Source: Alphaproteobacteria bacterium (GTDB lineage: Bacteria; Pseudomonadota; Alphaproteobacteria; JAPYRI01). Taken from it: a stretch of 64,000 bases of DNA. The notes under the pieces were generated by a model. That model searched no databases. It saw only the letters and a program-made list of their open reading frames with translations, and had not been told where the DNA came from. Of the stretch, positions 1,857 to 57,982 are shown one piece after another; within the stretch, counting starts at the first letter, position 1, and each line of letters opens with the position of its first letter. A program made the translations under genes and the position numbers. The stretch lies in the NCBI GenBank assembly GCA_029941135.1, contig JAPYRI010000001.1, positions 6,275-70,274 on the forward strand. Reading direction: 5' to 3'.

Positions 1857-2951
1857 TCACGCCACGTCTAGGCCAACCGCGTCGCCTACATTTGCGAATC
1901 CGTCTTGCGCCAGCAATTTTTCCAGTTCGAGTTTAATCCGGTGCGCGAGTTGCGGTCCCTCAAATATTAATGCCGAATAGAGCTGTACCAATGAAGCACC
2001 AGACCTGATTTTACAATAAGCCTCCGCGCCGTTGGATATTCCGCCTACTCCCACTAGAGGCACCCGTCCTTCGGTTAGCTGATACATCTCGCGCAACAAT
2101 TCGTTCGAGGTTTCGAACAAGGGCGCTCCGCTTAAGCCCCCTTTTTCTCCGGAATGCGGACCATGAAGACGCTCGCGACCATCGGTTGTTGTGTTGGAAA
2201 TGATCAGCCCATCAACGCCTCGGCTTAAAACCACTGTCGCGATATCCTGCCGGGCTGCAAGGTCTAAGTCGGGTGAAATTTTGATCAGCACTGGCGTTGG
2301 CACACCATCCGCCGCCAGCCTTGAGCGCGCGTCAAGTAACCGCAAAACCAGACCATCCAATGCCGCTCGTGCCTGCAAATCTCGAAGGCCCGGTGTATTC
2401 GGCGAGGACACATTAACGACAAAATAGTCTGCATCACCATAGAGACCGACAAATCCACTGACGTAGTCGGCCGTAGGATCCCGGCTGTCGCGGTTGGCGC
2501 CGAGGTTAATACCGACAATACCGTGCGACTTTATCGGCCGCGCCCGCAAACGAGCGCGCATGGCATCGACACCCAGATTGTTAAATCCCAGTCGGTTGAT
2601 AATCGCCCTGTCCGCATCCAACCGGAAAAGTCTCGGTTTGGGGTTACCTGGTTGAGGCTGAGGCGTCACACTACCCACTTCAACAAATCCAAACCCTTGT
2701 TCGAGCATCCTGTCGGGGACTTCGGCGTTCTTGTCGAATCCCGCCGCCAAGCCAATCGGGTTATCAAAATTTAGCCCGAAAACCTTGGTCTGTAGGCGAG
2801 GCAAATTACATTGAGGCGCGCGCGGTAACAGACCTGTCGCCAGCGCAGTCAGCGCCAATTTGTGGGCGCGCTCCGGATCCAAAGACCAGAAAAGGAGCCG
2901 GGCAAGGGGGTAAAAGTTCGCCATATGAATTGGTCGTCCTTTTGGTCGCAC
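1857..2951 (-). CDS. pyrD: Dihydroorotate dehydrogenase (quinone), class 2.
   Basis: Contains the class-2 PyrD N-terminus (FYPLARLLFWSLDPERAHKLALTAL), then GLNFDNPIGLAAGFDKNAEV… and the C-terminal FMN-binding block (GLIISNTT…GGLSGAPL…LVGVGGISNGAEAYCKIRSGASLVQLYSALIFEGP). The true start is probably the internal ATG at 2924 (MANFYPL…). Confidence 0.85.
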   Translation of the reverse strand: MRPKGRPIHMANFYPLARLLFWSLDPERAHKLALTALATGLLPRAPQCNLPRLQTKVFGLNFDNPIGLAAGFDKNAEVPDRMLEQGFGFVEVGSVTPQPQPGNPKPRLFRLDADRAIINRLGFNNLGVDAMRARLRARPIKSHGIVGINLGANRDSRDPTADYVSGFVGLYGDADYFVVNVSSPNTPGLRDLQARAALDGLVLRLLDARSRLAADGVPTPVLIKISPDLDLAARQDIATVVLSRGVDGLIISNTTTDGRERLHGPHSGEKGGLSGAPLFETSNELLREMYQLTEGRVPLVGVGGISNGAEAYCKIRSGASLVQLYSALIFEGPQLAHRIKLELEKLLAQDGFANVGDAVGLDVA

Positions 2952-2980
2952 CTAAATGCGTCTTTCTCCTCAATCGCGAT

Positions 2981-4573
2981 TTAATCCGCCTTTGGGTCCT
3001 TGGTCATATCGTCCCCCGCCAATGCCCGGCGTATCAAAGCCATAGATTCTTCAACCCCATACAGGGCAAAAAACGAGCCTATACGGGGACCCTGGCTTTG
3101 TCCGAACAGAACTTCGTATAGCGCCCGGAACCAATCCCTCAGGTTGTCGAAGCCGTTCTCCTTACCGACCTCATAAACCTCGTGCTGCAGGGTTTCGCCA
3201 TCTTCGCCTTTCAGTCCTTCCATTCGAAGGACGAGATCTTCCATTGCTATCCGCTCCTGATCTGTCGGCGCACGGTACTTCTTGTTCGGCTTCACAAAAT
3301 CCTGATAGTAGGAAATTGCATTGCCGAGCAAGTTATCAAGTATCCGATGGTTTTCGGGTGTCGCGTTGGGATCGTAACGGCTGATGAATCCCCAAAGAAC
3401 TGCCTTATCCTCTGAATTACAAGCACTCGCCAGATTAAGCAGGATCGAAAAGCTTAGCGGCACTTTTTCGCTCGGCGGGCTACCGCGATGTATATGCCAA
3501 ACCGGATTGCCTAAGTGTTCCTTGTCGTCCTGGTCCGGATAACGGTGGAGATGGGTGATGTACTCGTCCACATTTTTGGGGATGACGTCAAAGAAAAGGC
3601 GTTTGGCTTTTTTGGGATTTTGAAACATGTAAAGCGAGAGACTTTCCGGCGGCGCGTGCCGCAACCATTCGTCAATGGTGAGGCCGTTGCCCTTAGACTT
3701 CGATATTTTAGCGCCTTCTTCGTCCAAGAATAACTCGTAGGCGAAACCGTCCGGTGGATTGCCTCCAAGGATGCGGCATATGCGGTTGGATAGGCGGACC
3801 GAGTCAATTAAATCCTTGCCGTACATTTCGTAATCCACATCCAAAGCCGCCCAGCGCATGGCCCAGTCTGCCTTCCACTGGAGCTTGCAATGGCCGCCCG
3901 TGACCGGCACTTCAACTCGGTTACCCTGATCTTCGTAGACGATCGTGCCGGCATCCACATTGCACTCAACAACCGGCACCTGGAGCACTACCCCGGTGTT
4001 CGGACAGAGCGGCAGAAAAGGGCTGTAAGTCGCCTGCCGTTCCGCGCCCAGCGTCGGTAAAATAACCTCGATCACCTCGTCATAGTTGGCAAGGACGTTA
4101 AGCAGTGTTTCATCAAGGGCGCCGGATCGATATTGCTCGGTCGCACTCTTAAACTCATAGTCAAACTCGAAGGCATCTAAAAACGCACGCAGACGCGCAT
4201 TGTTGTGGTGTCCCAAACTTTCGTGAGTGCCAAAGGGGTCAGGAACCGCCGTCAATGGTTTACCCAGGTGTTGCGCCAGCATCTCCTGATTGGGCAGATT
4301 GTCTGGAACCTTGCGAAACCCATCCATATCGTCCGAATAGGCAAACAAACGAGTAGGAATATCGCTCATAAGCGAAAACGCGTGCTGTACCATGGTCGTT
4401 CGCGCAACTTCGCCGAAAGTTCCAATGTGGGGCAAACCACTGGGCCCATAGCCGGTTTCAAGCAGCGCATAGCCTTTGGTAGGCGGGCTTTTGGTCAAGC
4501 GCTGAACCAATTTGCGGGCCTCGATAAAGGGCCAGGCCTTTGCATCATCAGGAATAATCATGGGAGCAGACAT
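2981..4573 (-). CDS. lysK: Lysine--tRNA ligase, class I (archaeal-type LysRS found in alphaproteobacteria).
   Basis: HIGH-type motif PHIGTFGE and a KMSKS-type motif KISKSKGN. Reading from the internal start [16 protein letters not shown] (ATG at 4571-4573) gives about 530 aa, which fits class-I LysRS. The ORF-track call 2981..5053 adds 160 non-conserved N-terminal residues that run into the divergent intergenic region. Confidence 0.8.
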
Positions 4574-4751
4574 GGACAAACCTTTTTGGGGCACCGCGTG
4601 GCCAAGTGCCGGAAACCTAGGCTGCCAGCGGAGTATCGTCAACTTGGCCAGAACAATCAAATGGGAACATTGAGCGAACCTTGCATGGCGGGCCGACAAT
4701 CGCGCCGTTATACTCCAGCGCCATGACATCCAATCACCGGTTTTCACCAAC

Positions 4752-7514
4752 ATGACCCCGTCGCAGATCACAATGCCGGATGCCCCGGTTCTGGTAGCTG
4801 GGCACAAACGCGCGATCTTGATCAGTCTTGATGGTGAGGTACAAGAGCTCGACGCCGGCGCCGCAGCCAAAATTGTTGCCGGCAAGCAAATCATTGTCTG
4901 CCATGGTGCGGTTACCGTCAGGCGGCTGGGCGTGACTTCGGCAAAGGCTCCAGAAACACTGATTGACGTCCTGCAGTTGTTCGCGTTCGTACGCCCAGCG
5001 GCCTTTTGTCTGCCCACGCCAGGAGGAGTTTCTTTGGCCCTTGGGCTCAACATCGGCCCATCTCTTGAAGACCAAGCGATGGGAATTTTGGCAACCGCGC
5101 GCGCCTTGCTTGCCGAACTTACTCAACCCCAATATCCCGACCGCGAAGCAACGGCCCGCCTTGCCATGACCATGGCACAAGCAGGCTGGCCCTGGGGTAC
5201 GTCGGTTTTGGCCGCTTTGGGGGTACCTCAAAAATCGACCGGTGCCTTAGGCGGACTCGACGTATGGCTTCGACTACCAGAATGGGAGGAACGCCCGCCT
5301 GAGCCGGCAGTCGCGGAACACCCCGTCAATCCTGATGAAACCCGCCTGAGACTGCAAGCCCTGCTCGACCCCACCGCTGAGTTGCGCCCGCAACAATCGA
5401 ACTACGCCGCCGGAATAGCGTCTGGTTTCTCGCCGCGCGACGATACGGACGCTCCCAATATTGTTCTCGCCGAAGCCGGGACCGGCATTGGCAAAACTCT
5501 TGGATACATTGCCCCGGCCAGCCTATGGACCGAGCGTAATCAGGGGGCGATTTGGTTTTCTACTTACACCAAAAACCTACAACGGCAAATTGATCAAGAA
5601 TTGAGCCGTTTGTATCCGGATCCAACCGAAAAAGCCCGTAAAGCTGTTATTCGTAAGGGCCGGGAGAATTATTTGTGCCTGCTCAATTTTGAGGAAGCAG
5701 TGGCCCGCAATCGCGCTAGCGGCAACACGATTACTTTGGCCCTTTTAGCACGCTGGGCCGGTTACAGCCGGGATGGTGACATGGTCGGAGGTGACTACCC
5801 TGCATGGCTCGAGAACTTGGGTGAGGGCACGCGATTGGGCGGGCTTACTGACCGGCGTGGAGAATGCATCTATTTCGCCTGCGCTCACTATCGAAAATGC
5901 TTCATTGAGCGCGCCGTACGCCGGGCGCGAAAGGCCGACATTGTGGTCGCCAACCATGCCTTAGTCATGACCCAGGCGGTTGCTCGCGCGCGCGATTTAG
6001 AAGAAGGCACTGAGCGCGCTGATCTCCCTACGCATTATGTGTTTGATGAAGGCCACCACGTGTTCGATGCCGCCGACAGCGCTTTTTCAGCTTGTTTAAG
6101 TGGTCAGGAGACGGCCGAACTGCGGCGCTGGATCCGAGGTCCGGAAGGCCGCCGTGCCCGCCGGGGCCGAGGTCTGGAAAAGCGGGTTGGTGATCTGGTC
6201 GCGGGCGATGGCGAAGCGGAATACGCCCTAAATCAGGCCACGCTGGCCGCTGCCAAGCTACCTGGTGAGGGATGGCTTGCCCGTGTCGCAGGAGAGGGAT
6301 CACCCACTGGACCAGCGGAGAAATTTTTGCATGCGGTCCACAATCTGGTACGCGCTCGAAATCCGGATGACGGTTCATTCTATGGCCTCGAGGCTGCCAA
6401 CACCGAACCGCCCGAGGATTTAATCGATGCCGCTGCTTTGTTAGGTGACACATTACTCTCACTCGCAAAACCGCTTGGGGACCTCGCAAAAGCGCTCCAC
6501 GAAAAGTTAAACGATGACGCTGCTCAATTGGATGCCGCAACTCGGGGACGGATTGATGCCGTAGCTCGCAGTTTGCGGAAAAGGATTGAGTTCGGCCTGA
6601 CACCTTGGCGGGACATGCTGTCCGATCTCGGCGCTACTACTCCGGACGCTTTTGTTGACTGGTTTTCGGTACAACGTCGTGCGGGACGGGACACTGACAT
6701 CGGATTTCACCGTCACTGGATTGACCCTACACAGCCCTTCACCACGGCTGTATTGGATCAATGCCACGGGGCGGTAATAACTTCCGCTACATTGCGCGAC
6801 CGGAGCCCCGATGCGGACGACGATTGGGCCAGCGCCGAAGTGCGCACCGGCGCCTTGCATTTGGTAAAACCCCCGGTTCGATTGGCCATCCCATCTCCGT
6901 TTGACTATGCAGCGCAAACCCGGGTTCTGGTCGTGACCGACGTGCGCGGTGGCAGTTCAGATCAGTTGGCTGCCGCCTATCGCGAATTATTTAAGGCTGC
7001 AGGCGGCGGAGCGTTAGGCTTGTTCACCTCTATTGCCCGGCTACGGGCGGTCCACGAACGCATTGCGTCGCCGTTGGATGAAATGGGCTTGCCGCTTTAC
7101 GCACAGCACGTTGATGCCATGGATACCGGCACCTTGGTGGACATATTCCGCGCCGAAACGGATGCCTGTTTGTTGGGAACAGATGCGGTTCGCGACGGTG
7201 TTGACGTCCCGGGAAGGTCGCTGCGGCTTATCGTTTACGACCGTGTGCCCTGGCCGCGTCCGGATTTGCTGCATCGAGCACGGAAAAAAGCGTTTGGCAG
7301 CCGCGCCTACGACGACATGATAACTCGTTTACGCCTTAAGCAAGCTTTTGGACGATTGTTGCGGCGCGCCACCGACCGGGGAATGTTTGTCATGCTGGAT
7401 TCGCGCATGCCGTCACGGCTGGCCACAGCCTTTCCCGAAGGGCTGACGATTGAACGCGTGGGATTAGCGGAAGCAATTGCCGAAACGGCGACATTCTCGG
7501 CGGTTGGCTCATAA
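4752..7514 (+). CDS. ATP-dependent DNA helicase, DinG/XPD (Rad3) family, with a roughly 230-aa N-terminal extension of unknown function.
   Basis: 920 aa. Walker A ([13 protein letters not shown]), a DEAH-like box ([10 protein letters not shown]) and a four-Cys Fe-S module (CLLNF…[13 protein letters not shown]) sit between helicase motifs I and II. The C-terminal helicase domain is conserved (VITSATL…, GLFTS…). Confidence 0.75.
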
Positions 7515-16503: not shown

Positions 16504-16844
16504 TTTCTACCTCCCGAGCGCACATAGGCCCACAGGCTTTCGAGCTCGCCCGGGAGCAGCATATCGCCCCATGCCGGCATGTCTCCTGTGCCGTCGGTCA
16601 CCGATTTCTTAAAACGATCAAACTGATCCACTGGGAATTTACGCAGGTCGAAGCTGGAGTTTCCAGCGTTGACCATATTTGGGCCGTGACATTGGGCGCA
16701 AAGCTGTTGATATGCGGGCTTGCCTTTGGCGGCTTCGGTATCCACATGACTGCCCGCTCCTGCCGGTGACGCCAAAACTGCGAAAACAACGGCCACCGCA
16801 AACATATTGTTCAACCACTCTTTTTTCACAAACACTTTACTCAT
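16500..16844 (-). CDS. Mono-haem class I c-type cytochrome (likely electron acceptor for a quinoprotein dehydrogenase).
   Basis: 114 aa with a signal peptide. Single CxxCH (CAQCHG) and a downstream Met ligand region (GTGDMPAWG). It overlaps the MoxJ-like gene by 4 nt. Confidence 0.7.
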   Translation of the reverse strand: MSKVFVKKEWLNNMFAVAVVFAVLASPAGAGSHVDTEAAKGKPAYQQLCAQCHGPNMVNAGNSSFDLRKFPVDQFDRFKKSVTDGTGDMPAWGDMLLPGELESLWAYVRSGGRN

Positions 16845-16861
16845 ATGGATTACTCGGAAGA

Positions 16862-16935
16862 ATTGAGATTGGAGCGGGTGAAGGGAATCGAACCCTCGTC
16901 GTAAGCTTGGGAAGCTTCTGCTCTGCCATTGAGCT
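16862..16935 (-). tRNA. tRNA-Gly (anticodon CCC).
   Basis: Minus-strand read: GCGGGTGTAGCTCAATGGCAGAGCAGAAGCTTCCCAAGCTTACGACGAGGGTTCGATTCCCTTCACCCGCTCCA. The anticodon loop is TTCCCAA, the T-arm is GGTTCGATTCC, and the CCA is genome-encoded. The cloverleaf was folded by eye. Confidence 0.8.
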
Positions 16936-17145
16936 ACACCCGCCCGATGTCCTCAACAAAAAGTGGGCACTCAGCGTCGTATCTTGCCGCGATTCCGTTG
17001 CCGCTGCCGAACATCATATCGGCTCATATGGTCGCCGCAAGGGAACTATTGCATCTCGCAACAACGTGCTTGGTTTGGCTGGACCTCTATAAAAGAGCCC
17101 AATTTTAGCCGTTTTACTCTCTTGTCTGAATATGTGACAAAATTT

Positions 17146-40934: not shown

Positions 40935-40989
40935 GGTCGATTTTTTTGTGGCCGGGTATAATTTGGCCGACCAAAAGGGAGCCAATGCC
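40935..40989 (+). promoter_or_regulatory. Candidate SAM-II (metA-element) riboswitch in the metZ leader.
   Basis: CGAUUUUUUUG–UGGCC-GGGUAUAAUUU-GGCC–GACCAAAAGGGAGCC directly precedes the metZ ATG. A 5′ U-tract, a short hairpin, then a 3′ A-tract plus SD is the SAM-II pseudoknot/triplex architecture. SAM-II is known upstream of metA/metX/metZ in alphaproteobacteria. No covariance model was run. Confidence 0.4.
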
Positions 40990-42198
40990 ATGTCGCCCTC
41001 AAATGAGAGCAACAACAAGACCGCAATGCGGCCGCGCACGGCCCTGGTCCGCGGCGGTCTTCACCGATCGCCGTTGGGGGAAACCTCGGAAGCGATATTT
41101 CTCACTTCGGGCTTTGTTTACGACGACCCGGAAGTGGCCGCGGCGCGCTTTAGTGGCGATGCGGATGGCTATACTTATTCCAGATTGCGCAACCCAACAG
41201 TCGCCATGTTCGAAGAACGCATGGCTCTGATCGGTGGCACTGAGATCGCCCGCGCGACCGCGAGCGGCATGGCTGCCGTAGCGGCATCTTTCCTGTCGCA
41301 AGTGAAAGTGGGAGATCATGTGGTTGCGGGTGAAGCTTTATTTGGCTCTATCCGGGTGATCCTGGAAGATGTCCTGCCCCGATTCGGCGTTGACCTCACC
41401 ATGGTCAATAATACGGACCTCGAGGCTTGGAAACAGGCGGTCCAGCCGGAAACCACATTGTTTTTTTTGGAATCCCCTTCCAATCCCACATTAGGGATCA
41501 CGGACCTCCAGGCCGTGGCCGATATTGCCCATAATGCCGGGGCAAAAATCATTTTGGATAATGTGTTCGCCACCCCTGTTCTGCAACGTCCGGTCGAATT
41601 TGACATCGATATCACGATTTATTCGGCAACCAAGCACATTGACGGCCAAGGCCGCTGTTTGGGTGGCTGCATATTATCCGATCAAAAGTTTCTGGATGAT
41701 TTTCTTGATCCCTATTTGCGTCACACCGGACCTGCTCTCAGTCCCTTTAACGCCTGGGTGCTGTTGAAAGGAATTGAAACGCTGGAACTTAGAGTTGAGG
41801 CCGCCTGCCAGAATGCGCAGCATGTTGCGGATTTTCTCGCAGAACAGCCAGGGGTCACAAAGGTATTATACCCGGGGCGGCAAGATCATCCCCAGCACAC
41901 GCTTGCCATGCGCCAAATGAGCGCCGGCGGGACACTCGTTTCATTCGAGTTACCCGGGGGTCGCGAGCGTGCGTTTGCGTTTTTAAAGGCGCTCAACTTG
42001 ATCGATATTTCCAACAACCTGGGCGATACTAAGAGTCTGATCACCCATCCGGCCAGCACCACCCATCAACGCCTGTCACCCGAAGATCGCGCCGCCCAGG
42101 GTATTGGCGAAGGTCTGGTTCGCCTGTCAGTCGGATTGGAAGATGCGGATGATCTGACTGACGATATTGGCCAAGCGCTAGCGGTGGCGGCGCTCTAA
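40990..42198 (+). CDS. metZ: O-succinylhomoserine sulfhydrylase (Cys/Met-metabolism PLP-dependent enzyme).
   Basis: 402 aa from the ATG at 40990 (SD GGGAG 8 nt upstream). The ORF-track start at 40948 is a GTG inside the putative riboswitch. The PLP-lysine region is …IYSATKHIDGQGRCLGG…. Confidence 0.8.
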   Translation: MSPSNESNNKTAMRPRTALVRGGLHRSPLGETSEAIFLTSGFVYDDPEVAAARFSGDADGYTYSRLRNPTVAMFEERMALIGGTEIARATASGMAAVAASFLSQVKVGDHVVAGEALFGSIRVILEDVLPRFGVDLTMVNNTDLEAWKQAVQPETTLFFLESPSNPTLGITDLQAVADIAHNAGAKIILDNVFATPVLQRPVEFDIDITIYSATKHIDGQGRCLGGCILSDQKFLDDFLDPYLRHTGPALSPFNAWVLLKGIETLELRVEAACQNAQHVADFLAEQPGVTKVLYPGRQDHPQHTLAMRQMSAGGTLVSFELPGGRERAFAFLKALNLIDISNNLGDTKSLITHPASTTHQRLSPEDRAAQGIGEGLVRLSVGLEDADDLTDDIGQALAVAAL

Positions 42199-49267: not shown

Positions 49268-49690
49268 ATGGCGTGGACCGATGAACGCATCGCCGATCTT
49301 AAAAAGATGTGGGAGAAAGGGCTCTCTGCTAGTCAGATTGCCGAACAATTGGGTGATGTAACCCGTAACGCTGTCATCGGTAAGGCGCACCGGCTTGGTC
49401 TCTCAGGCCGACCATCGCCGGTTAAAAGCACGGAAAAGAAAAAGGCGAAGCCCAAACCCTCCCCAAAGAAAGTTAAAAAGGAAGAAGAAAATAAGCTGAT
49501 TACCTTGCTGATGTTAACCGACCGCATGTGCAAATGGCCGATTGGTCATCCGGGCGAGGAAAACTTCCAATTTTGCGGGGTAAAATCAGTTCCCGGGCAA
49601 CCTTATTGCGCTGAACATTCGTCCCAAGCGTACCAGGAACGGTCGAGCAAGAAAGACCGGCGCGACCGGGCCAATGCAATGAGAAAATAG
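49268..49690 (+). CDS. gcrA: Cell-cycle regulator GcrA.
   Basis: N-terminus MAWTDERIADLKKMWEKGLSASQIAEQLGDVTRNAVIGKAHRLGLSGRP and C-terminus …CKWPIGHPGEENFQFCG…PYCAEHS…. Both are diagnostic for alphaproteobacterial GcrA. Confidence 0.85.
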   Translation: MAWTDERIADLKKMWEKGLSASQIAEQLGDVTRNAVIGKAHRLGLSGRPSPVKSTEKKKAKPKPSPKKVKKEEENKLITLLMLTDRMCKWPIGHPGEENFQFCGVKSVPGQPYCAEHSSQAYQERSSKKDRRDRANAMRK

Positions 49691-49864
49691 CCGAAAGATC
49701 TTTTTTTGGGCGGGTTTTGCGAGCGCCTAATTCCCGCCGCAATTCTTTCGAACTGAAACTTTTATTAATCGTTTTGGATCACAATGGTTACCAGGCGGAC
49801 TTTGGCTTGGCGATCTACCGCGCTTTTTTTCCACGTTTCCGCAGCCCCAGGGAGATCTTCCGGA

Positions 49865-51089
49865 ATGACTTCATTCCAAAATGATCGCAATAGGACAGGC
49901 GTGGGCAACCCAATCTGGTTTTCGCCCGACCCCTATGTCTTAGGCGAAGCGTTTGAAGGCATGGAACATGCGCTGCTGATCTTTGACGCGCGAAAAATCT
50001 TGATTTCCGCCAATGCGCGTGCCCGCAAAATACTTAATTTGCAAGGGGGATACCGTACATCAAGAAAATGTGTGGCCGGACAAGGGTGCTGCCGGTATTC
50101 ACCATTCCCTCGATCGGCTGGCAATGGCGTCAGGGCCCGCAGCCGGGGACCAATTTGTCTGGCCCTCGGCCCGCGGTATCCTGGATGGGTTTCACAATGT
50201 GCTCCCTGGAGGCAGCTGTGTCATTAGTTTGATTGAACGGCAAACGGACATAAGAGCCCCGGAAAAGCCGCAACAATTTCTTCAACCGAGCAATTTCTCA
50301 CCTGAATTGATTTCACTGGCCCAGGACCTGGTGATCGCACGTGACGAGGCCCGAGCCACCAGCAGCGAGGCGGCGGAAAGCCAAACCCGGGTGGAAGCCA
50401 TTGTCGAAAGCGTTGTCGACGCAATTATTACCACCGATAGTAGAGGTTCAATACATACTTTCAATTGTGCAGCTGAACGGATATTTGGCTACAGCCCCGA
50501 CGAGATTATTGGCAAGACCTTGGGCAGCCTGTTCCTGCCCCACGTATTGGATGCAGATGTCGACCTGTTCTCCGGTGATGTAGCGGCTAAGATTCAGTCG
50601 GTATTGGGTCGATCGCTGGATGAGGTTGGGTTAACTAAAGCGGGGATTATTTTTCCCGTCCGCTTTACCGCAACCGAAATGCAGTTGGCGAGCCAGCAAA
50701 TGCTCAATTGGGTGATTCGTGACGTTACCGATGACCAGCGAACCCGTGAAGCATTGCAGCACAAAAGTGACTTGATTCAACTCCTTCATTCGGTCACCGA
50801 AGCGGCATCGGAAGCGGAGACCATTGCCGAAAACATCGAGATCGGTCTCAAATCGGTTTGTTCTCATATTGGCTGCCATGGAGCGCAAGGGTACCTTTTT
50901 TCAAAACCCCCTGGCTGCGAACGATTTCGCCCGTTGGTTAGCGGACCGCTAGAACGTGCATCTGCCAGCACGGCACCGCAGCCGGAAGAAGTTTTTGATT
51001 TGATTATGCCGCCGGCTAAGCAGCTTCGGGTGCCGCCGCCACCACTTTTTCGTCCACATGGCCTTCAAACTGGACAAAATTATCTTTAA
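49865..51089 (+). pseudogene. PAS-PAS signalling protein, apparently frameshifted at a G5 run (50045-50049). It retains only the last roughly 35 aa of an EAL domain.
   Basis: Frame A (49784..50227) encodes the start of a PAS fold (…LLIFDARKILISANARARKILNLQGG). Frame B (50013..51089) continues with a second PAS (…ITTDSRGSIHTFNCAAERIFGYSPDEIIGKTLGSLF…) and then …IAENIEIGLKSVCSHIGCHGAQGYLFSKPP, which is the conserved terminal motif of EAL domains. The 3′ end overlaps pckA antisense. Confidence 0.5.
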
Positions 51090-52797
51090 AGCGGCCTACC
51101 AGATCACGTGCCTGATCGTCGAAGGCGCTTTTGTCCACCCAAGTATCCCTTGGGTTTAATACGTCGGTCGGCACCCCTTCGCAACTTACCGGTACGGCAA
51201 AACCAAAGTTTGGATCTGTCCGCTTTTCAATCTTGTCAAGCGTACCGTCCAACGCCCCATGGAGAAGCGCACGGGTGATTTTGATCGGCATGCGGTGCCC
51301 GACCCCATACACCCCACCGGTCCAGCCGGTGTTAACCAGCCAGCATTTGACGTCATGTTCGGCCACTAAATCACGCAGCATATTGCCGTAGACCGATGGA
51401 TGACGCGGCATAAAGGGGGCGCCGAAACAGGTAGAGAATGTGGCTTGCGGCTCATTGCCCAGTCCTTTTTCTGTCCCGGCTAGTTTGGCCGTATAACCAG
51501 ATAAGAAGTGATACATGGCTTGCTCCGGCGTAAGCCTGGCGATCGGGGGCAAGACGCCGAACGCGTCAGCGGTCAGCATGATGATATTTTTAGGATGTCC
51601 GGCAATTCCAGCTTCAGACGCGTTCGGAATAAAGGACAGCGGGTAGGCGCCCCGCGTATTCTCCGTCAAACTGGCATCGTCCAAATCAAGTTTATGGGTG
51701 TTGGGGTCAAGAACCACATTTTCGAGCACGGTGCCGAAGCGCTGGGTGGTGGCATAAATTTCAGGCTCGGCTTCGGCGGATAGGCGGATCATTTTGGCGT
51801 AGCACCCGCCTTCAAAATTGAATACTCCGTCTTCACCCCAACCATGTTCGTCGTCACCGATCAGCGTTCGCGCCGGATCTGCGGACAGCGTGGTCTTTCC
51901 AGTGCCCGAAAGGCCAAAGAAAATAGCCGAGTCACCCGCTTCACCCAGATTGATTGAACAATGCATGGGCATAATCTGCTTGGCCGGCAGCAAGTAATTC
52001 AAAATGCTGAAAACTGATTTCTTGATTTCGCCGGCGTAAGACGTGCCGCCAATCAAAACCATCCGGGCACCAAAATTAACAACAACAAAAACTTCAGATC
52101 GAGTGCCGTCCAACTCGGGCGACGCCTGAAATCCGGGCGCGTGCAGGATGGTGAACTGGGGTTCGAAATCGCTGAGTTCTTCGCCAGAGGGCTGAATTAG
52201 CATGTGGCGGGTAAATAACGAATGCCATGCGGTTTCGGTAACCACCCGGACAGGCAGGCAATGGTCTCGATTGGCCCCGGCAAAGCTGTCTTGGACGAAC
52301 AATTCGCGCCCCTGCATGTAGGCGAGCATTTTTCTGTGCAATCCGTCGAATTTATCGACGGAAATCGGTTTATTAACTACGCCCCACCAGATGTCATTTT
52401 CACTGGAAGGTTCCTTGACAACAAATTTGTCGTTGGCGGATCGGCCGGTATGCTGGCCGGTCAGGACCACCAGCGGACCATTGTCGGCGACCTCGCCTTC
52501 ACCGCGCAGGATCGCCTGCTCATAAAGTGCTGCGTCGCCTAAATTCCAATAGGCCGTAGCAACATTATGAATGCCGTGTCTATCCAAGCCGTAACGACTT
52601 ACATGAGATCCGAAATTGTCCACCGCCCTGCTCTCCCTCGGTACTTGGCCGTTGTTTGATGTTACTGTTTTTACGACAACTACAAGACACCGGTCCCGTA
52701 ACATCTCTGGGTCACTATCTATGATATTTTTTGCCGTCGAGACCACTCGAAGAGAATATAACGAATACGATCCGGGCTCATGCCCAAGTGTTACCAT
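51016..52797 (-). CDS. pckA: Phosphoenolpyruvate carboxykinase (ATP).
   Basis: Kinase-1a P-loop ([13 protein letters not shown]), the [13 protein letters not shown]-terminal block, and a PckA-specific core. The true start is probably internal, either the TTG at 52585-87 (…LDRHGIHN…) or the ATG at 52702-04. The ORF-track start adds 65 or more residues. Confidence 0.9.
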
Positions 52798-53814: not shown

Positions 53815-54519
53815 ATGGCGGCCACCATCGCCCTCGTCGACGATGATCGCAATATACTCGAATCAGTCAGCATGGCACTGGACGCTGAAGGATTTGAGGT
53901 TGTGACCTTTAACGACGGCGCGTCAGCGCTTTCTACACTGTCAGACAAAACTGTGGACCTCGTGGTTTTGGACATAAAGATGCCCCGGATGGACGGTATC
54001 GAAGTCCTGCAGCGCCTGCGCAAAGTTCAGGATATGCCGGTTATTTTCCTCACGTCCAAAAATGACGAGATTGATCAACTCCTGGGATTAAAAATTGGCG
54101 CCGACGATTACATCCCCAAACCTTTTTCCCAACGCATATTGATCGAGCGTATCCGCGCCGTATTGCGCCGGACAAACGGGACGCCGCCAGCCGCTGGCGC
54201 ACTCTCTGACACCGCCGGCAGCATAGTACAGGGTGCACTGGTTCTGGATCCAGCCCGCCACTACTGTGAATGGCAAGGCAGCGCCGTACAATTAACCGTA
54301 ACCGAGTTTCTCATATTGCAATCTCTGGCCTCGCGACCCGGGCTGGTTAAAAGCCGCGATCAATTGATGGATGCCGCTTATGGCGAGCAAATTTATGTGG
54401 ATGATCGCACGATCGACAGCCACATTAAGCGGCTACGCAAAAAAATAAGGGCCGTCGACCAAGATTTCTCCAGCATCGAAACCCTTTATGGCCTTGGATA
54501 TCGGTTCAATACCGCCTGA
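53815..54519 (+). CDS. chvI: OmpR-family response regulator ChvI.
   Basis: 234 aa. Near-collinear with ChvI of Sinorhizobium/Agrobacterium ([25 protein letters not shown]…[67 protein letters not shown]). Confidence 0.85.
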
Positions 54520-56086
54520 CCCAGGCCGATTCCGCCCGCGGGGACCGTTTTCATCCCTGACTCGTCGGATTTTCGCCATCAATGCAATCGCGCTCGGAAT
54601 TTTGGTGGCTGGGGTTTTGTATCTTGATCGTTTCGAAGCCGGATTGATCGAAGCCCGTGGCCAAGGGCTTAAAACCCAAGGCGAAATTATTGCCGGCGCC
54701 CTAGCGGAAGCCGCCACATCCGGCCCTGAATCAGCGCGGATCAAACTCGACCTGGCCAATCAAATTTTGCATCGTCTCGTGGTCCCAACCAATACTCGGG
54801 CGCGCTTGTTTGGGACCGGCGGACAACTGGTGGCGGACAGCCGGCGCTTACTGCCGACCCAGCAAGTCATTGTCCGAGAGCTGCCGGCCCCAGGCGCTTG
54901 GAGCGAACAGTGGTCCAATGTTTTGTACGACAGAATTGCGTCATTGCTGTCATCGCGCGCAACACTTGATCTTTATCGCGAAAGCCCGCGGCAAAGTGCG
55001 CGCGACTACGAGGAAGTTGTTCAAGCCCTCCTGGGCAACCCCACATTCAAGGTGCGTAGAACCCGAGAAGGCTCCTTGCTCCTCAGCGTTGCCTTGCCCG
55101 TCCAGCGCTTGAAACTGGTGCTTGGTGCCTTCATGCTATCGGCGGAAGCCATTGATATTGATCAGTCTTTGCGGGAACAACGGTTAGCGATCCTGGGGAT
55201 TTTTGGCACATCCCTGGTGGTCACGGTGCTTCTGTCCTTGTTCTTAGCAGGCACCATCGCGCGACCGGTGCGGCAGTTGGCCGAAGCCGCTGACCGGGTG
55301 CGAAGTGGGATAAGCCGGCGTATTCCGGTACCAGACTTCACCTTGCGCCGGGATGAAATCGGCGACTTGTCGGGTGCGTTGCGGGACATGACCCAAGCGC
55401 TGTATAGGCGCATGGATGATATCGAAAAGTTTGCCGCCGACGTGGCTCACGAAATTAAAAATCCGCTCACTTCATTGCGTAGTGCCGTCGAAACTTTTGA
55501 TCGTACGGACGACCCGGTAAAACAGCGTCGGTTGATTGAAATTATTGGCAATGACGTGAAGCGACTGGACCGGTTGATCACCGAGATATCGGACGCGTCA
55601 CGTTTAGATGCGGAATTATCGCGGGCAGAGAAAGAAACAATTGATCTGCCTAAACTCCTCGCTGAGCTGATTGGGTTTTACCAAGATCGGGATCAAGCCT
55701 ATGCCGGTCAGGTATCCCTGCGGCTCCCGAGTGCGATAAATATGGAGCTATCCGGCATTGCCGGACGGCTGGGCCAGGTATTTCGCAATTTGATCGACAA
55801 CGCGCTCTCATTCAGCCCAGCCGAGGCACCTGTTGTCGTGACATGCTTTCGTGATGATGGGTGGGCGGTGGTAACCATCGAAGATAGGGGGCCGGGTATA
55901 CCTAATGAAAACCTGGAAACCATATTTGAACGTTTTTATTCCGAGCGACCATCAACCGAGACTTTCGGCACTCATTCCGGGTTGGGGCTCAACATTGCCA
56001 AGCAAATCGTAGAAGCCCATGGGGGGTCCCTTCGTGTTCAAAATTGCAATCCAGGCGCCCGTTTTGAAGTCAGGCTGCCATTCTAG
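54488..56086 (+). CDS. chvG: Sensor histidine kinase ChvG (ExoS).
   Basis: 532 aa. Two TM segments, a HAMP domain, an H-box ([18 protein letters not shown]) and an HATPase_c domain (…[16 protein letters not shown]…). It overlaps chvI by 32 nt. Confidence 0.8.
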
Positions 56087-56142
56087 ATGTGACGGTTCCA
56101 CTGCTGCCTAAATATTGACACAACTCAGCGAGTAGCGCAGGT

Positions 56143-56586
56143 TTGGCGATCATGGACTTAATGCACGCGACTTGTGTCGAAGTGGACGGCGTTGGTGTCC
56201 TGCTGCGGGGACCATCGGGAAGCGGCAAATCAGACTTGGCTTTGCGGCTGATGAACGAAGGCGCGCGCCTGGTTTCAGATGATCAGGTGGCGATCCGGGT
56301 GGCTGGCGGACACCTTATCGCGGCGGCGCCGGATGCCCTTGATGGCATGATAGAAGTGCGAGGTATGGGGGTCATCTCGGTTCCCAGTGTGGCCCAGGTC
56401 AGAATTGAATTGATGGTTGATTTAGTGCCCGCAGAGGACCTTAGCCGCCTGCCGGAGCCTACGCATCTGGATATTGGAGGTATTGCGTTGCCCTTGTTTT
56501 TCATGGCGCCGTTCGAGGGCTCAGCAACAGCTAAATTACGCCTTGCGGTAAGAGCAGTGCGGCATGACATCGTACACAACGGCTAG
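56143..56586 (+). CDS. hprK: HPr kinase/phosphorylase, C-terminal-domain-only alphaproteobacterial form.
   Basis: 147 aa. P-loop GPSGSGKSDLALRL. This is the typical short HprK found downstream of chvG in alphaproteobacteria. Confidence 0.8.
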   Translation: MAIMDLMHATCVEVDGVGVLLRGPSGSGKSDLALRLMNEGARLVSDDQVAIRVAGGHLIAAAPDALDGMIEVRGMGVISVPSVAQVRIELMVDLVPAEDLSRLPEPTHLDIGGIALPLFFMAPFEGSATAKLRLAVRAVRHDIVHNG

Positions 56587-57541
56587 CCGAAGCAAAGTGA
56601 CACCCATGGTCGATCAAGCCCCCGTGTCCACCTTCAATACTTCTGCCCGGCGGCGGGTGTTACTGGTGACCGGGTTGAGCGGCTCAGGCCGGTCCACTGC
56701 GCTAAGAGCGCTGGAAGACCTGGGCTATGAGGCGATCGACAATTTGCCTTTATCGTTGCTGTATTCTGCTCTGGGATTGGACGCAACAGGCGCGAGTACC
56801 AGTCCGGCACCTAGCCGCGCTCCGCGCAAACCTATGGCCATCGGTCTCGACAGTCGAACGCGCGGTTTTGATCCGATCGCGTTCAGTCGCCGGGTCGACG
56901 TATTGCGTGCGATTCCCGATCTCAAAACCGAAGTTTTGTTTTTTGATAGCGAAGATGACGTTATTGCCCGCCGCTATACCGAGAACCGGCGGCGACACCC
57001 CTTAAGCCCAGACCGGTCATTGGCCGACGCCATATGCGAAGAGAGAGCGTTGCTCACCCCAGTGCGAAATCTAGCCGATTACGTCCTGGACACGTCCGCC
57101 CTTTCGTTGAACGATACCCGGCGTCTCATTTCAGGCAATTTCACGCTCGATGAAGATGCCGGTCTTGCACTTGCAGTCACCTCGTTTTCATATGGCAAGG
57201 GACTGCCGCGCGAATCAGACCTGGTTTTCGATGTGCGCTTCTTGTCCAATCCCCATTATGTTGACGAATTGCGCGACCATACAGGTCTTGACCCGCAAGT
57301 TTGCAGCTATATAACCGCCGACCCGGCGTTCCCGCCGTTTTTCGGAAGTGTCGGTGAATTATTGCTTTCCCTGCTTCCTCAGTATCGCCGCGAAGGCAAA
57401 AGCTATTTGACCGTCGCCTTTGGGTGCACCGGCGGGCGGCACCGATCTGTGTTTGTGGCTGAAAAGTTGGGTACCCTTTTGCGCGACGAAGGGTATCATG
57501 TCAGTGTCCTGCATCGGGATATGTCCTTAGGAACCCTCTGA
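56564..57541 (+). CDS. rapZ: RNase adapter protein RapZ (YhbJ) P-loop NTPase.
   Basis: Walker A VLLVTGLSGSGRSTALRALEDLGYEAIDNLP and the C-terminal …GCTGGRHRSV… motif. The likely start is the ATG at 56606. Confidence 0.8.
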   Translation: MTSYTTASRSKVTPMVDQAPVSTFNTSARRRVLLVTGLSGSGRSTALRALEDLGYEAIDNLPLSLLYSALGLDATGASTSPAPSRAPRKPMAIGLDSRTRGFDPIAFSRRVDVLRAIPDLKTEVLFFDSEDDVIARRYTENRRRHPLSPDRSLADAICEERALLTPVRNLADYVLDTSALSLNDTRRLISGNFTLDEDAGLALAVTSFSYGKGLPRESDLVFDVRFLSNPHYVDELRDHTGLDPQVCSYITADPAFPPFFGSVGELLLSLLPQYRREGKSYLTVAFGCTGGRHRSVFVAEKLGTLLRDEGYHVSVLHRDMSLGTL

Positions 57542-57565
57542 TCATCTGCCGGGAGTAAATGGATT

Positions 57566-57982
57566 ATGGCGGACGCCATTGGTCTTGTACTGGTCACCCA
57601 TGGAGGTTTGGCCGAACAATTTGTCGCGGCGATGGAGCACGTTGTTGGTCCCCAGGAGGGCGTGCGGGCCGTGTCCATTGGACCCGACGATGATATGGAG
57701 CAGCGCCGCAAAGATATTATGAAAGCGGTCGAGGACTTGGATCGGGGGAGTGGCGTTATAGTCCTGACTGATATGTTTGGCGGCACGCCCTCCAACTTGG
57801 CGATCTCGATTATCGGCAACGCGAACGTCGAAGTTTTGGCCGGGGTTAATCTGCCAATGCTGATTAAGCTCGCGAGTGTGCGCCAGTCTTTAACCCTTGC
57901 AGAAGCGGCGCAGGCCGCACAGGATTCGGGACGGAAATATATAAACTTGGCTTCCCGGTTATTGGCTGGTGAAGAAACGTGA
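57566..57982 (+). CDS. PTS EIIA component, mannose/fructose family (EIIA-Man, ManX-like).
   Basis: 138 aa. LVLVTHGGLAEQF… carries the phospho-His (His10) characteristic of EIIA-Man. Confidence 0.8.
   Translation: MADAIGLVLVTHGGLAEQFVAAMEHVVGPQEGVRAVSIGPDDDMEQRRKDIMKAVEDLDRGSGVIVLTDMFGGTPSNLAISIIGNANVEVLAGVNLPMLIKLASVRQSLTLAEAAQAAQDSGRKYINLASRLLAGEET

Follow-up and report, generated by a model that had tools for sequence, protein, structure and literature searches.

Proteins of the PAS-GAF-GGDEF-EAL type are among the commonest signalling architectures of bacteria, and deletions mediated by short direct repeats (microhomology), via replication slippage or illegitimate recombination, occur in bacterial genomes. 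Pseudogenised GGDEF/EAL genes are reported from niche-restricted bacteria, among them degenerate diguanylate cyclases of Shigella (PMC11327459) and a degraded c-di-GMP pathway in Salmonella Paratyphi A (bioRxiv 10.64898/2026.06.04.730116). Both cases resemble the locus presented here: c-di-GMP enzymes were lost by deletions and frameshifts, and their remnants are still recognisable and annotated as ORFs. Our locus, in contrast, belongs to an uncultured, Rhodospirillales-like alphaproteobacterium from metagenomes. According to the Shigella report, some of the mutated cyclases keep a residual activity, which is impossible in our copy, because its GGDEF domain is gone. Loss of single c-di-GMP enzymes by deletion or frameshift is already documented, and the present locus adds one instance.

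The locus lies between gcrA and pckA in a stretch of 64,000 nucleotides, hereafter called the window. A preliminary description had read it as a tandem-PAS gene, frameshifted at a run of five Gs and carrying the tail of an EAL domain, that was either decaying or re-tooled into a sensor. Positions 49865-50952 are, very probably, a decaying pseudogene of a cytoplasmic c-di-GMP turnover protein of about 900 aa (PAS-like, PAS, GAF, GGDEF, EAL).

Results

A split gene between gcrA and pckA, and its intact orthologs

In the window, gcrA (49268-49690, + strand; Pfam GcrA, E 1e-47) and the convergent pckA (51016-52797, - strand; PEPCK_ATP, E 2e-220) enclose two + strand ORFs in different frames, 49784-50227 (frame 2) and 50013-51089 (frame 0, 358 aa), which overlap each other as already described.

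Scanning metagenomes with the repaired protein gave a contig, L091, carrying the closest ortholog after gcrA, with 69% identity over residues 1-343 and no break of frame. The ...SVCSHIG-CHGAQGY of the window corresponds to ...SVCGHIG-WPVGHAYGCG... in L091, whose sequence then encodes a GAF domain (GAF_2, E 1.5e-9) and, as far as the end of the contig, a GGDEF domain (E 1e-33). A search with this 591-aa fragment led to four full-length orthologs, P0092 (904 aa), P0093 (922 aa), P0094 (903 aa) and P0095 (925 aa), all with the Pfam architecture PAS_7, PAS, GAF_2, GGDEF, EAL. On their contigs (L093-L096), the order HSP33, OTCase, aminotransferase, ABC-2 permease, gcrA, the gene itself and convergent pckA is that of the window. 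The intact orthologs come from Rhodospirillales-like metagenome contigs, and P0092 is labelled Rhodospirillales. The N-terminal 336 residues of the window copy are collinear with P0092-P0095; tblastn aligns them in segments of 196-296 residues with 58-66% identity. The orthologs retain RxxD, GGDEF, the EAL motif and DDFGTGYSS, and the ancestor was therefore probably catalytically competent.

The window copy thus occupies the same gcrA–pckA position as these PAS-GAF-GGDEF-EAL proteins (PF00989/PF13426, PF13185, PF00990, PF00563), but it lacks GAF, GGDEF and some 90% of EAL, and has two frameshifts besides. Other searches were less productive. Among species-representative genomes scanned with PckA, relatives reached at most 70% identity and none had gcrA or the PAS gene beside pckA. 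Querying a word index of proteins with the repaired 388-aa sequence returned only the identical ORF and PAS-only matches of at most 34% identity; the full-length orthologs were missed and came up only with the longer L091 fragment, so that negatives from this index need care. A homolog search with the 102-aa tail gave no matches.

Beside the P0092 gene, the ABC-2 permease of L093 (3063-3880, - strand) is called as two ORFs of 134 and 138 aa, compared with one of 272 aa in the window; the cause may be a frameshift in the lineage of L093 or a fault of the assembly.

Limits and layout of the remnant

The preliminary description had given the gene an extent of 49784-51089. Comparison with the orthologs corrects both ends and sets the limits of the pseudogene at 49865-50952. 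The start codon of the gene is ATG 49865, since orthologs begin MTSFHDG..., and the start at 49784 is unused. A probable ribosome-binding site, GGGAGA (49850-49855, + strand), can be read 9 nt 5' of this ATG, and L091 has an identical GGGAGA with the same 9-nt spacing 5' of its TTG start. The ancestral stop codon is at 50950-50952, not at 51089. A promoter and terminator scan of the + strand around the locus yielded nothing above shuffled expectation.

Between these limits, on the + strand, the remnant can be followed piece by piece. The first segment (49865-50042, frame 2) runs from the ATG through 59 codons and corresponds to the initial half of the N-terminal PAS-like domain; P0092 and P0094 start MTSFHDG..., and the L091 alignment begins at the same residue. 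The rest of this domain and a helical linker (50044-50387, frame 0) are collinear with L091 and P0092-P0095. The second PAS domain (50388-50732) passes the Pfam cut-off with both PAS_9 (E 3.3e-10) and PAS (E 4.7e-10); its sequence is intact in the window lineage and, of all parts, the best conserved relative to the orthologs. Next come the helix that linked PAS to GAF and what was once the beginning of the GAF domain (SDLIQLLHSVTEAASEAETIAENIEIGLKSVCSHIG, 50766-50873), collinear with ...LIKLLHSVAEAASDAESIAETVEVGMRSVCGHIGW of L091, which runs on into its GAF_2 match. The deletion junction, ATTGGCTG (50868-50875), leads into a first part of the EAL tail, CHGAQGYLFSKP (50874-50909, frame 0), in register with the C-termini of the orthologs. 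After a CCCCC run (50907-50911) with one C more than the ancestral frame, the second part of the tail follows with the ancestral stop (LAANDFARWLADR, 50912-50952, frame 1).

The 358-aa ORF departs from this layout at both ends. Its first 13 residues are non-homologous read-through, and its final 60 (50910-51089, + strand) are out-of-frame read-through with no counterpart in the orthologs, covering the terminal 74 nt of pckA at its 3' end.

An in-frame loss of 538 codons

Collinearity of the window with the orthologs ends at HIG and resumes at C(H/D)xAQGY, from where it extends to the stop. Alignment to the full-length orthologs, one of the checks that had been proposed, shows that the window copy lacks 538 codons (1614 nt) relative to L093, L094 and L096, and 550 relative to L095; the missing piece extends from between HIG and W in GAF to between IG and C in EAL. 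The earlier claim that most of the GGDEF/EAL output region had been deleted was correct, as the syntenic intact orthologs (903-925 aa) map the loss to these 538 codons, and GAF was lost as well. The peptide across the junction reads …SVCSHIGCHGAQGY….

In L094, the two breakpoints are CAT ATC GGC followed by TGG (in GAF) and CGG ATC GGC followed by TGC (in EAL), which makes an 8-nt direct repeat, ATCGGCTG. The repeat is found on both sides in only one of the four orthologs (L094, about 60% identity), and its presence in the direct ancestor is extrapolated from there. A single copy remains at the window junction. This is the pattern of deletions between short direct repeats, with an 8-nt repeat flanking the lost segment in an intact ortholog; the difference from such deletions is that the event is deduced here from orthologs about 60% identical rather than from the direct ancestor. 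A deletion between short direct repeats would explain that the junction is in frame.

What remains of each domain

With both frameshifts repaired, Pfam finds a solid PAS_9 domain (40.6 bits for a cut-off of 27, profile positions 2-103 of 103). The N-terminal domain of the window is weaker: PAS_7 scores 19.8 bits, below cut-off, compared with 28.5 bits (cut-off 27) for the L091 ortholog; in an hhalign comparison to a PAS profile, the probability is 67% (E 5e-5). The tandem-PAS claim therefore stands for the second domain, which is above the Pfam cut-off, and less firmly for the first; on sequence grounds, a tandem PAS is likely. An AlphaFold single-sequence model of the repaired protein was uninformative (pLDDT 37.6).

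Of the GAF domain, whose complete fold takes about 135-150 aa (PF13185/PF01590), only the leading helix is present, up to ...SVCSHIG, where the orthologs continue WP(L/V)GHAY.... No GGDEF domain (PF00990) was matched by Pfam in the repaired protein; this domain falls wholly inside the deleted 538 codons. A complete EAL domain (PF00563) has about 236 positions, with the catalytic EAL/ExL glutamate, N, E, the DDFGTG aspartates, K, the E of AEGVE and Q; the repaired protein scores 12.9 bits for a cut-off of 31.3, on profile positions 204-236 only. The HMM check proposed for the C-terminus, run via Pfam, hence aligned the final 33 positions of the EAL model, but below threshold. Elsewhere in the window, neither GGDEF nor EAL sequences occur. 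With 538 codons lost and two frameshifts, no catalytic or I-site residues remain in the window copy.

That the short tail derives from an EAL domain is supported in several ways. Compared with the last 25 residues of P0092-P0095, CHGAQGYLFSKPLAANDFARWLADR is identical at 11-14 of 25 positions in a fixed register, a score reached in 0 of 100000 shuffles. The 13 residues after the shift in the C run, taken alone, match the ortholog sequences LTVDAFAGWLRDS and LSRDRFTQWLREN in register (39 of 100000 shuffles), and the stop of the window tail is at the same distance as that of P0092. In a phmmer search of the PDB with the tail, 14 of 17 matches were C-termini of EAL domains (best E 0.007). By these alignments, the EAL remnant is 25 residues long and split by a frameshift. 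It had been estimated at roughly 35 residues; within that stretch, CHGAQGYLFSKP (50874-50909) is indeed EAL, but IAENIEIGLKSVCSHIG is the start of GAF. Pfam and an alignment to DosP had suggested that 'IAENIE' was the AEGVE strand of EAL, with the junction right after PAS. This candidate was ruled out by L091, in which the corresponding residues open the GAF domain.

Two frameshifts in the window lineage

The first frameshift, CAAGGGGGAT (50042-50051, + strand), carries one base more than the ancestral frame. The window-lineage allele at the G run is CAAGGGGG, with GGGGG at 50045-50049, and removing one base joins ...ARKILNLQG to DTVHQENVW..., so that the frame change and the fusion of the two ORFs are as first described. 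L091 and all full-length orthologs are in frame at this site. They read G-N there, and the in-frame CAG GGG AAT of a close relative, L007, is therefore probably ancestral. Its allele, CAGGGGAAT, is not a simple G4, which favours an inserted A plus an A-to-G change over slippage in the G run. The window G5 allele is accordingly best explained, as the most parsimonious history of these sequences, by an extra A (CAG to CAAG) and an A-to-G change. The G run had been proposed as a slippage or sequencing-error site; the allele of this relative and the sharing of the extra base by nine assemblies speak against both.

A second frameshift, overlooked in the preliminary description, was seen on reading all three frames. 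After ...GAQGYLFSKP, the third frame reads LAANDFARWLADR and a stop, ending at 50952, the switch occurring within CCCCC (50907-50911). Deletion of one C from this run gives KPLAANDFARWLADR and the stop. L007 has four Cs at this position, and its JGI protein, P0089, ends ...FSKPLAANDFARWLADR.

The G5 and the C5 are both present in eight other independent metagenome assemblies, six from NCBI and two from Logan (L001-L006, L009, L010). The 358-aa ORF is exactly conserved in six other contigs (L001-L006, from four NCBI metagenome assemblies and two Logan SRA-run assemblies), and a variant differing by one residue (P0091) is found in L009 and L010. The assemblies of the window lineage differ among themselves by SNPs at 49917, 50690 and 50772; of these, the two located in the 358-aa ORF are synonymous, P0091 having its one amino-acid change. 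Since nine assemblies with differing SNP haplotypes have the same G5 and C5, these are not a one-off sequencing error.

A sister lineage broken elsewhere, and relaxed selection

The sister lineage is represented by two short JGI contigs, L007 and L008, with about 97.6% identity to the window and the same ...SVCSHIG-CHGAQGY... junction. At 50042-50051, L007 reads CA-GGGGAAT, in frame, compared with the +1 of the window; L008 does not cover the site. At 50646, inside the second PAS domain, the window is intact and both L007 and L008 have a 1-nt deletion. At the C run (50907-50911), L007 has C4 as opposed to the C5 (+1) of the window, while in L008 the C run and the adjacent T and A runs are changed, with more run-length changes at 50901-50907. 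Both of these contigs are short, single and of the low-coverage type, and their private indels could in principle be errors; the deletion at 50646 is common to both, which counts against error. As a different frameshift interrupts the second PAS domain in the sister lineage, there is no product that both lineages conserve.

In the retained region, window and L007 differ by 14 nonsynonymous and 8 synonymous substitutions, distributed 7/9/6 over the codon positions, for a dN/dS of 0.54. Corresponding values are 0.13 for window versus L091 in the retained region, 0.02 for gcrA and 0.06 for the pckA tail (window versus L008), where five of six changes are in third positions. In a binomial test of window versus L007, P was 0.0009 against an omega of 0.13 and 0.13 against neutrality; the counts are small (22 substitutions), and omega is about 0.5, not 1. 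The long-term constraint is thereby rejected and neutrality is not; by this measure, selection on the retained region is relaxed, with omega up about fourfold from its long-term 0.13.

Other features of the window

A SAM-II riboswitch (SAM_alpha, RF00521; 40839-40917, + strand, 72.8 bits) lies directly 5' of ORF 40948-42198, which encodes a Cys/Met-metabolism PLP enzyme (PF01053, E 3e-126). This arrangement is the usual alphaproteobacterial control of methionine biosynthesis. The sole tRNA gene of the window, tRNA-Gly(CCC) (16870-16943, - strand), overlaps the called ORF 16679-17092 (+ strand), which is therefore probably spurious. The longest pckA ORF has 593 aa, with the PEPCK_ATP domain beginning at residue 81 and relatives aligning from about residue 60; translation probably begins at an internal ATG, for a protein of about 534 aa.

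Adjoining pckA, 53815-57982 (+ strand) is a conserved alphaproteobacterial cluster with a ChvI/ChvG-like response regulator and sensor kinase (domains Sensor_TM1, Stimulus_sens_1, HAMP and HisKA), a truncated HPr kinase (C-terminal domain only, 147 aa), RapZ and EIIA-Man. The ChvG-like kinase, intact in the window, is split by a stop codon in L002 (7182-8780, corresponding to window 55685-55702). A cluster of four substitutions in 18 nt (three G-to-T, one T-to-A) creates this stop, which looks like local assembly or read noise, not biology.

At the other end of the window, the long ORF 2981-5053 (- strand) is, by its translation, a putative class I lysyl-tRNA synthetase, with an over-extended 5' end overlapping + strand ORFs. 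An apparent gene-free gap of 1.25 kb at 2951-4205 was an artefact of greedy ORF picking, as this ORF covers it.

Discussion

The pseudogene reading rests on three sets of observations: syntenic intact orthologs (L091, L093-L096); two +1 frameshifts together with a 1614-nt deletion; and relaxed selection, with different indels in L007 and L008. Points against it are the in-frame nature of the deletion, the intact second PAS domain of the window lineage, the synonymous character of the two SNPs in the 358-aa ORF, and an omega of about 0.5 that comes from small counts. The order of events is a single in-frame deletion, common to the window and L007/L008 lineages, then separate frameshifts in each. 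By comparison with the orthologs, a first step removed 538 codons, from just after ...VCxHIG of GAF to just before C(H/D)xAQGY of EAL, leaving both PAS domains, the first GAF helix and the last 25 residues of EAL. The 8-nt repeat AT(C/T)GGCTG probably mediated this loss, its two copies having undergone replication slippage or illegitimate recombination. In a second step, with no output domain left, constraint relaxed and the lineages bearing the deletion gained different frame-breaking indels: in the window lineage, one extra base each at 50042-50051 and in the C run (50907-50911), and in the sister lineage (L007, L008), -1 at 50646 inside the second PAS domain.

Could the gene rather be intact in frame, the extra G or A and the extra C being homopolymer miscalls of sequencing or assembly? 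Both frame changes are at or beside five-base homopolymers, and one relative has C4. However, the identical G5 and C5 recur in eight further assemblies from two pipelines (NCBI submissions and Logan), with differing SNPs, and the remainder of the densely coding 64-kb window has no other split genes that we noticed; moreover, the 1.6-kb loss of GAF, GGDEF and EAL would persist even if both indels were errors. We hold such an artefact to be very improbable. A homopolymer at the frame change also invites the idea of regulated decoding, in which run-length phase variation or programmed ribosomal frameshifting at the G run would restore a PAS-PAS product. Yet G5 and C5 are invariant in nine assemblies, orthologs and sister lineage are without run or slippery site and simply in frame, and two separate shifts would both have to be bypassed. 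Runs of five are, besides, too short for typical contingency loci. Regulated decoding is hardly credible.

Somewhat less improbable, though still quite unlikely, is a functional sensor-only protein, either the PAS-PAS product or the 358-aa ORF, re-tooled as a ligand-binding partner or a dominant-negative PAS interactor. The in-frame junction, a second PAS domain above the Pfam cut-off, and a 358-aa ORF identical in seven assemblies (window and L001-L006) despite two synonymous SNPs are what such a protein would lead one to expect. However, the N-terminal PAS-like domain is split by the first frameshift in the window lineage and the second PAS domain by a different one in the sister lineage, omega is about fourfold higher with substitutions even across codon positions, and the 358-aa ORF begins with 13 and ends with 60 residues of non-homologous read-through. 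It had been pointed out that orthologs of the same short architecture with an intact frame would indicate a genuine short protein. There are none: every ortholog with an intact frame is full length, and the short forms are all broken, at different places. Of the two outcomes first considered, the decaying gene agrees with the different indels and the relaxed selection, and the sensor-only form is unsupported. Even added together, miscalls, regulated decoding and a re-tooled sensor amount to a small minority of the probability. In a related and about equally doubtful variant, to which we give marginally less weight than to the re-tooled sensor, the in-frame deletion product or the 358-aa ORF would still be expressed as a stand-alone PAS sensor or interaction module. 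If so, an enzyme would have been domesticated into a pure sensor or adaptor, and the frameshifts would be recent, tolerated via re-initiation at ATG 50013.

Under the preferred reading of a decaying pseudogene, the locus would make no functional diguanylate cyclase, phosphodiesterase or sensor, and the annotated 358-aa 'PAS protein' would be an artefact of longest-ORF calling. The public annotation, a 358-aa PAS protein overlapping pckA, should then be corrected to a pseudogene at 49865-50952. The locus would be a clean, completely mapped case of the death of a multi-domain c-di-GMP enzyme, by a repeat-mediated in-frame deletion and then lineage-specific frameshifts, and it hints that this lineage may be shedding part of its c-di-GMP signalling.
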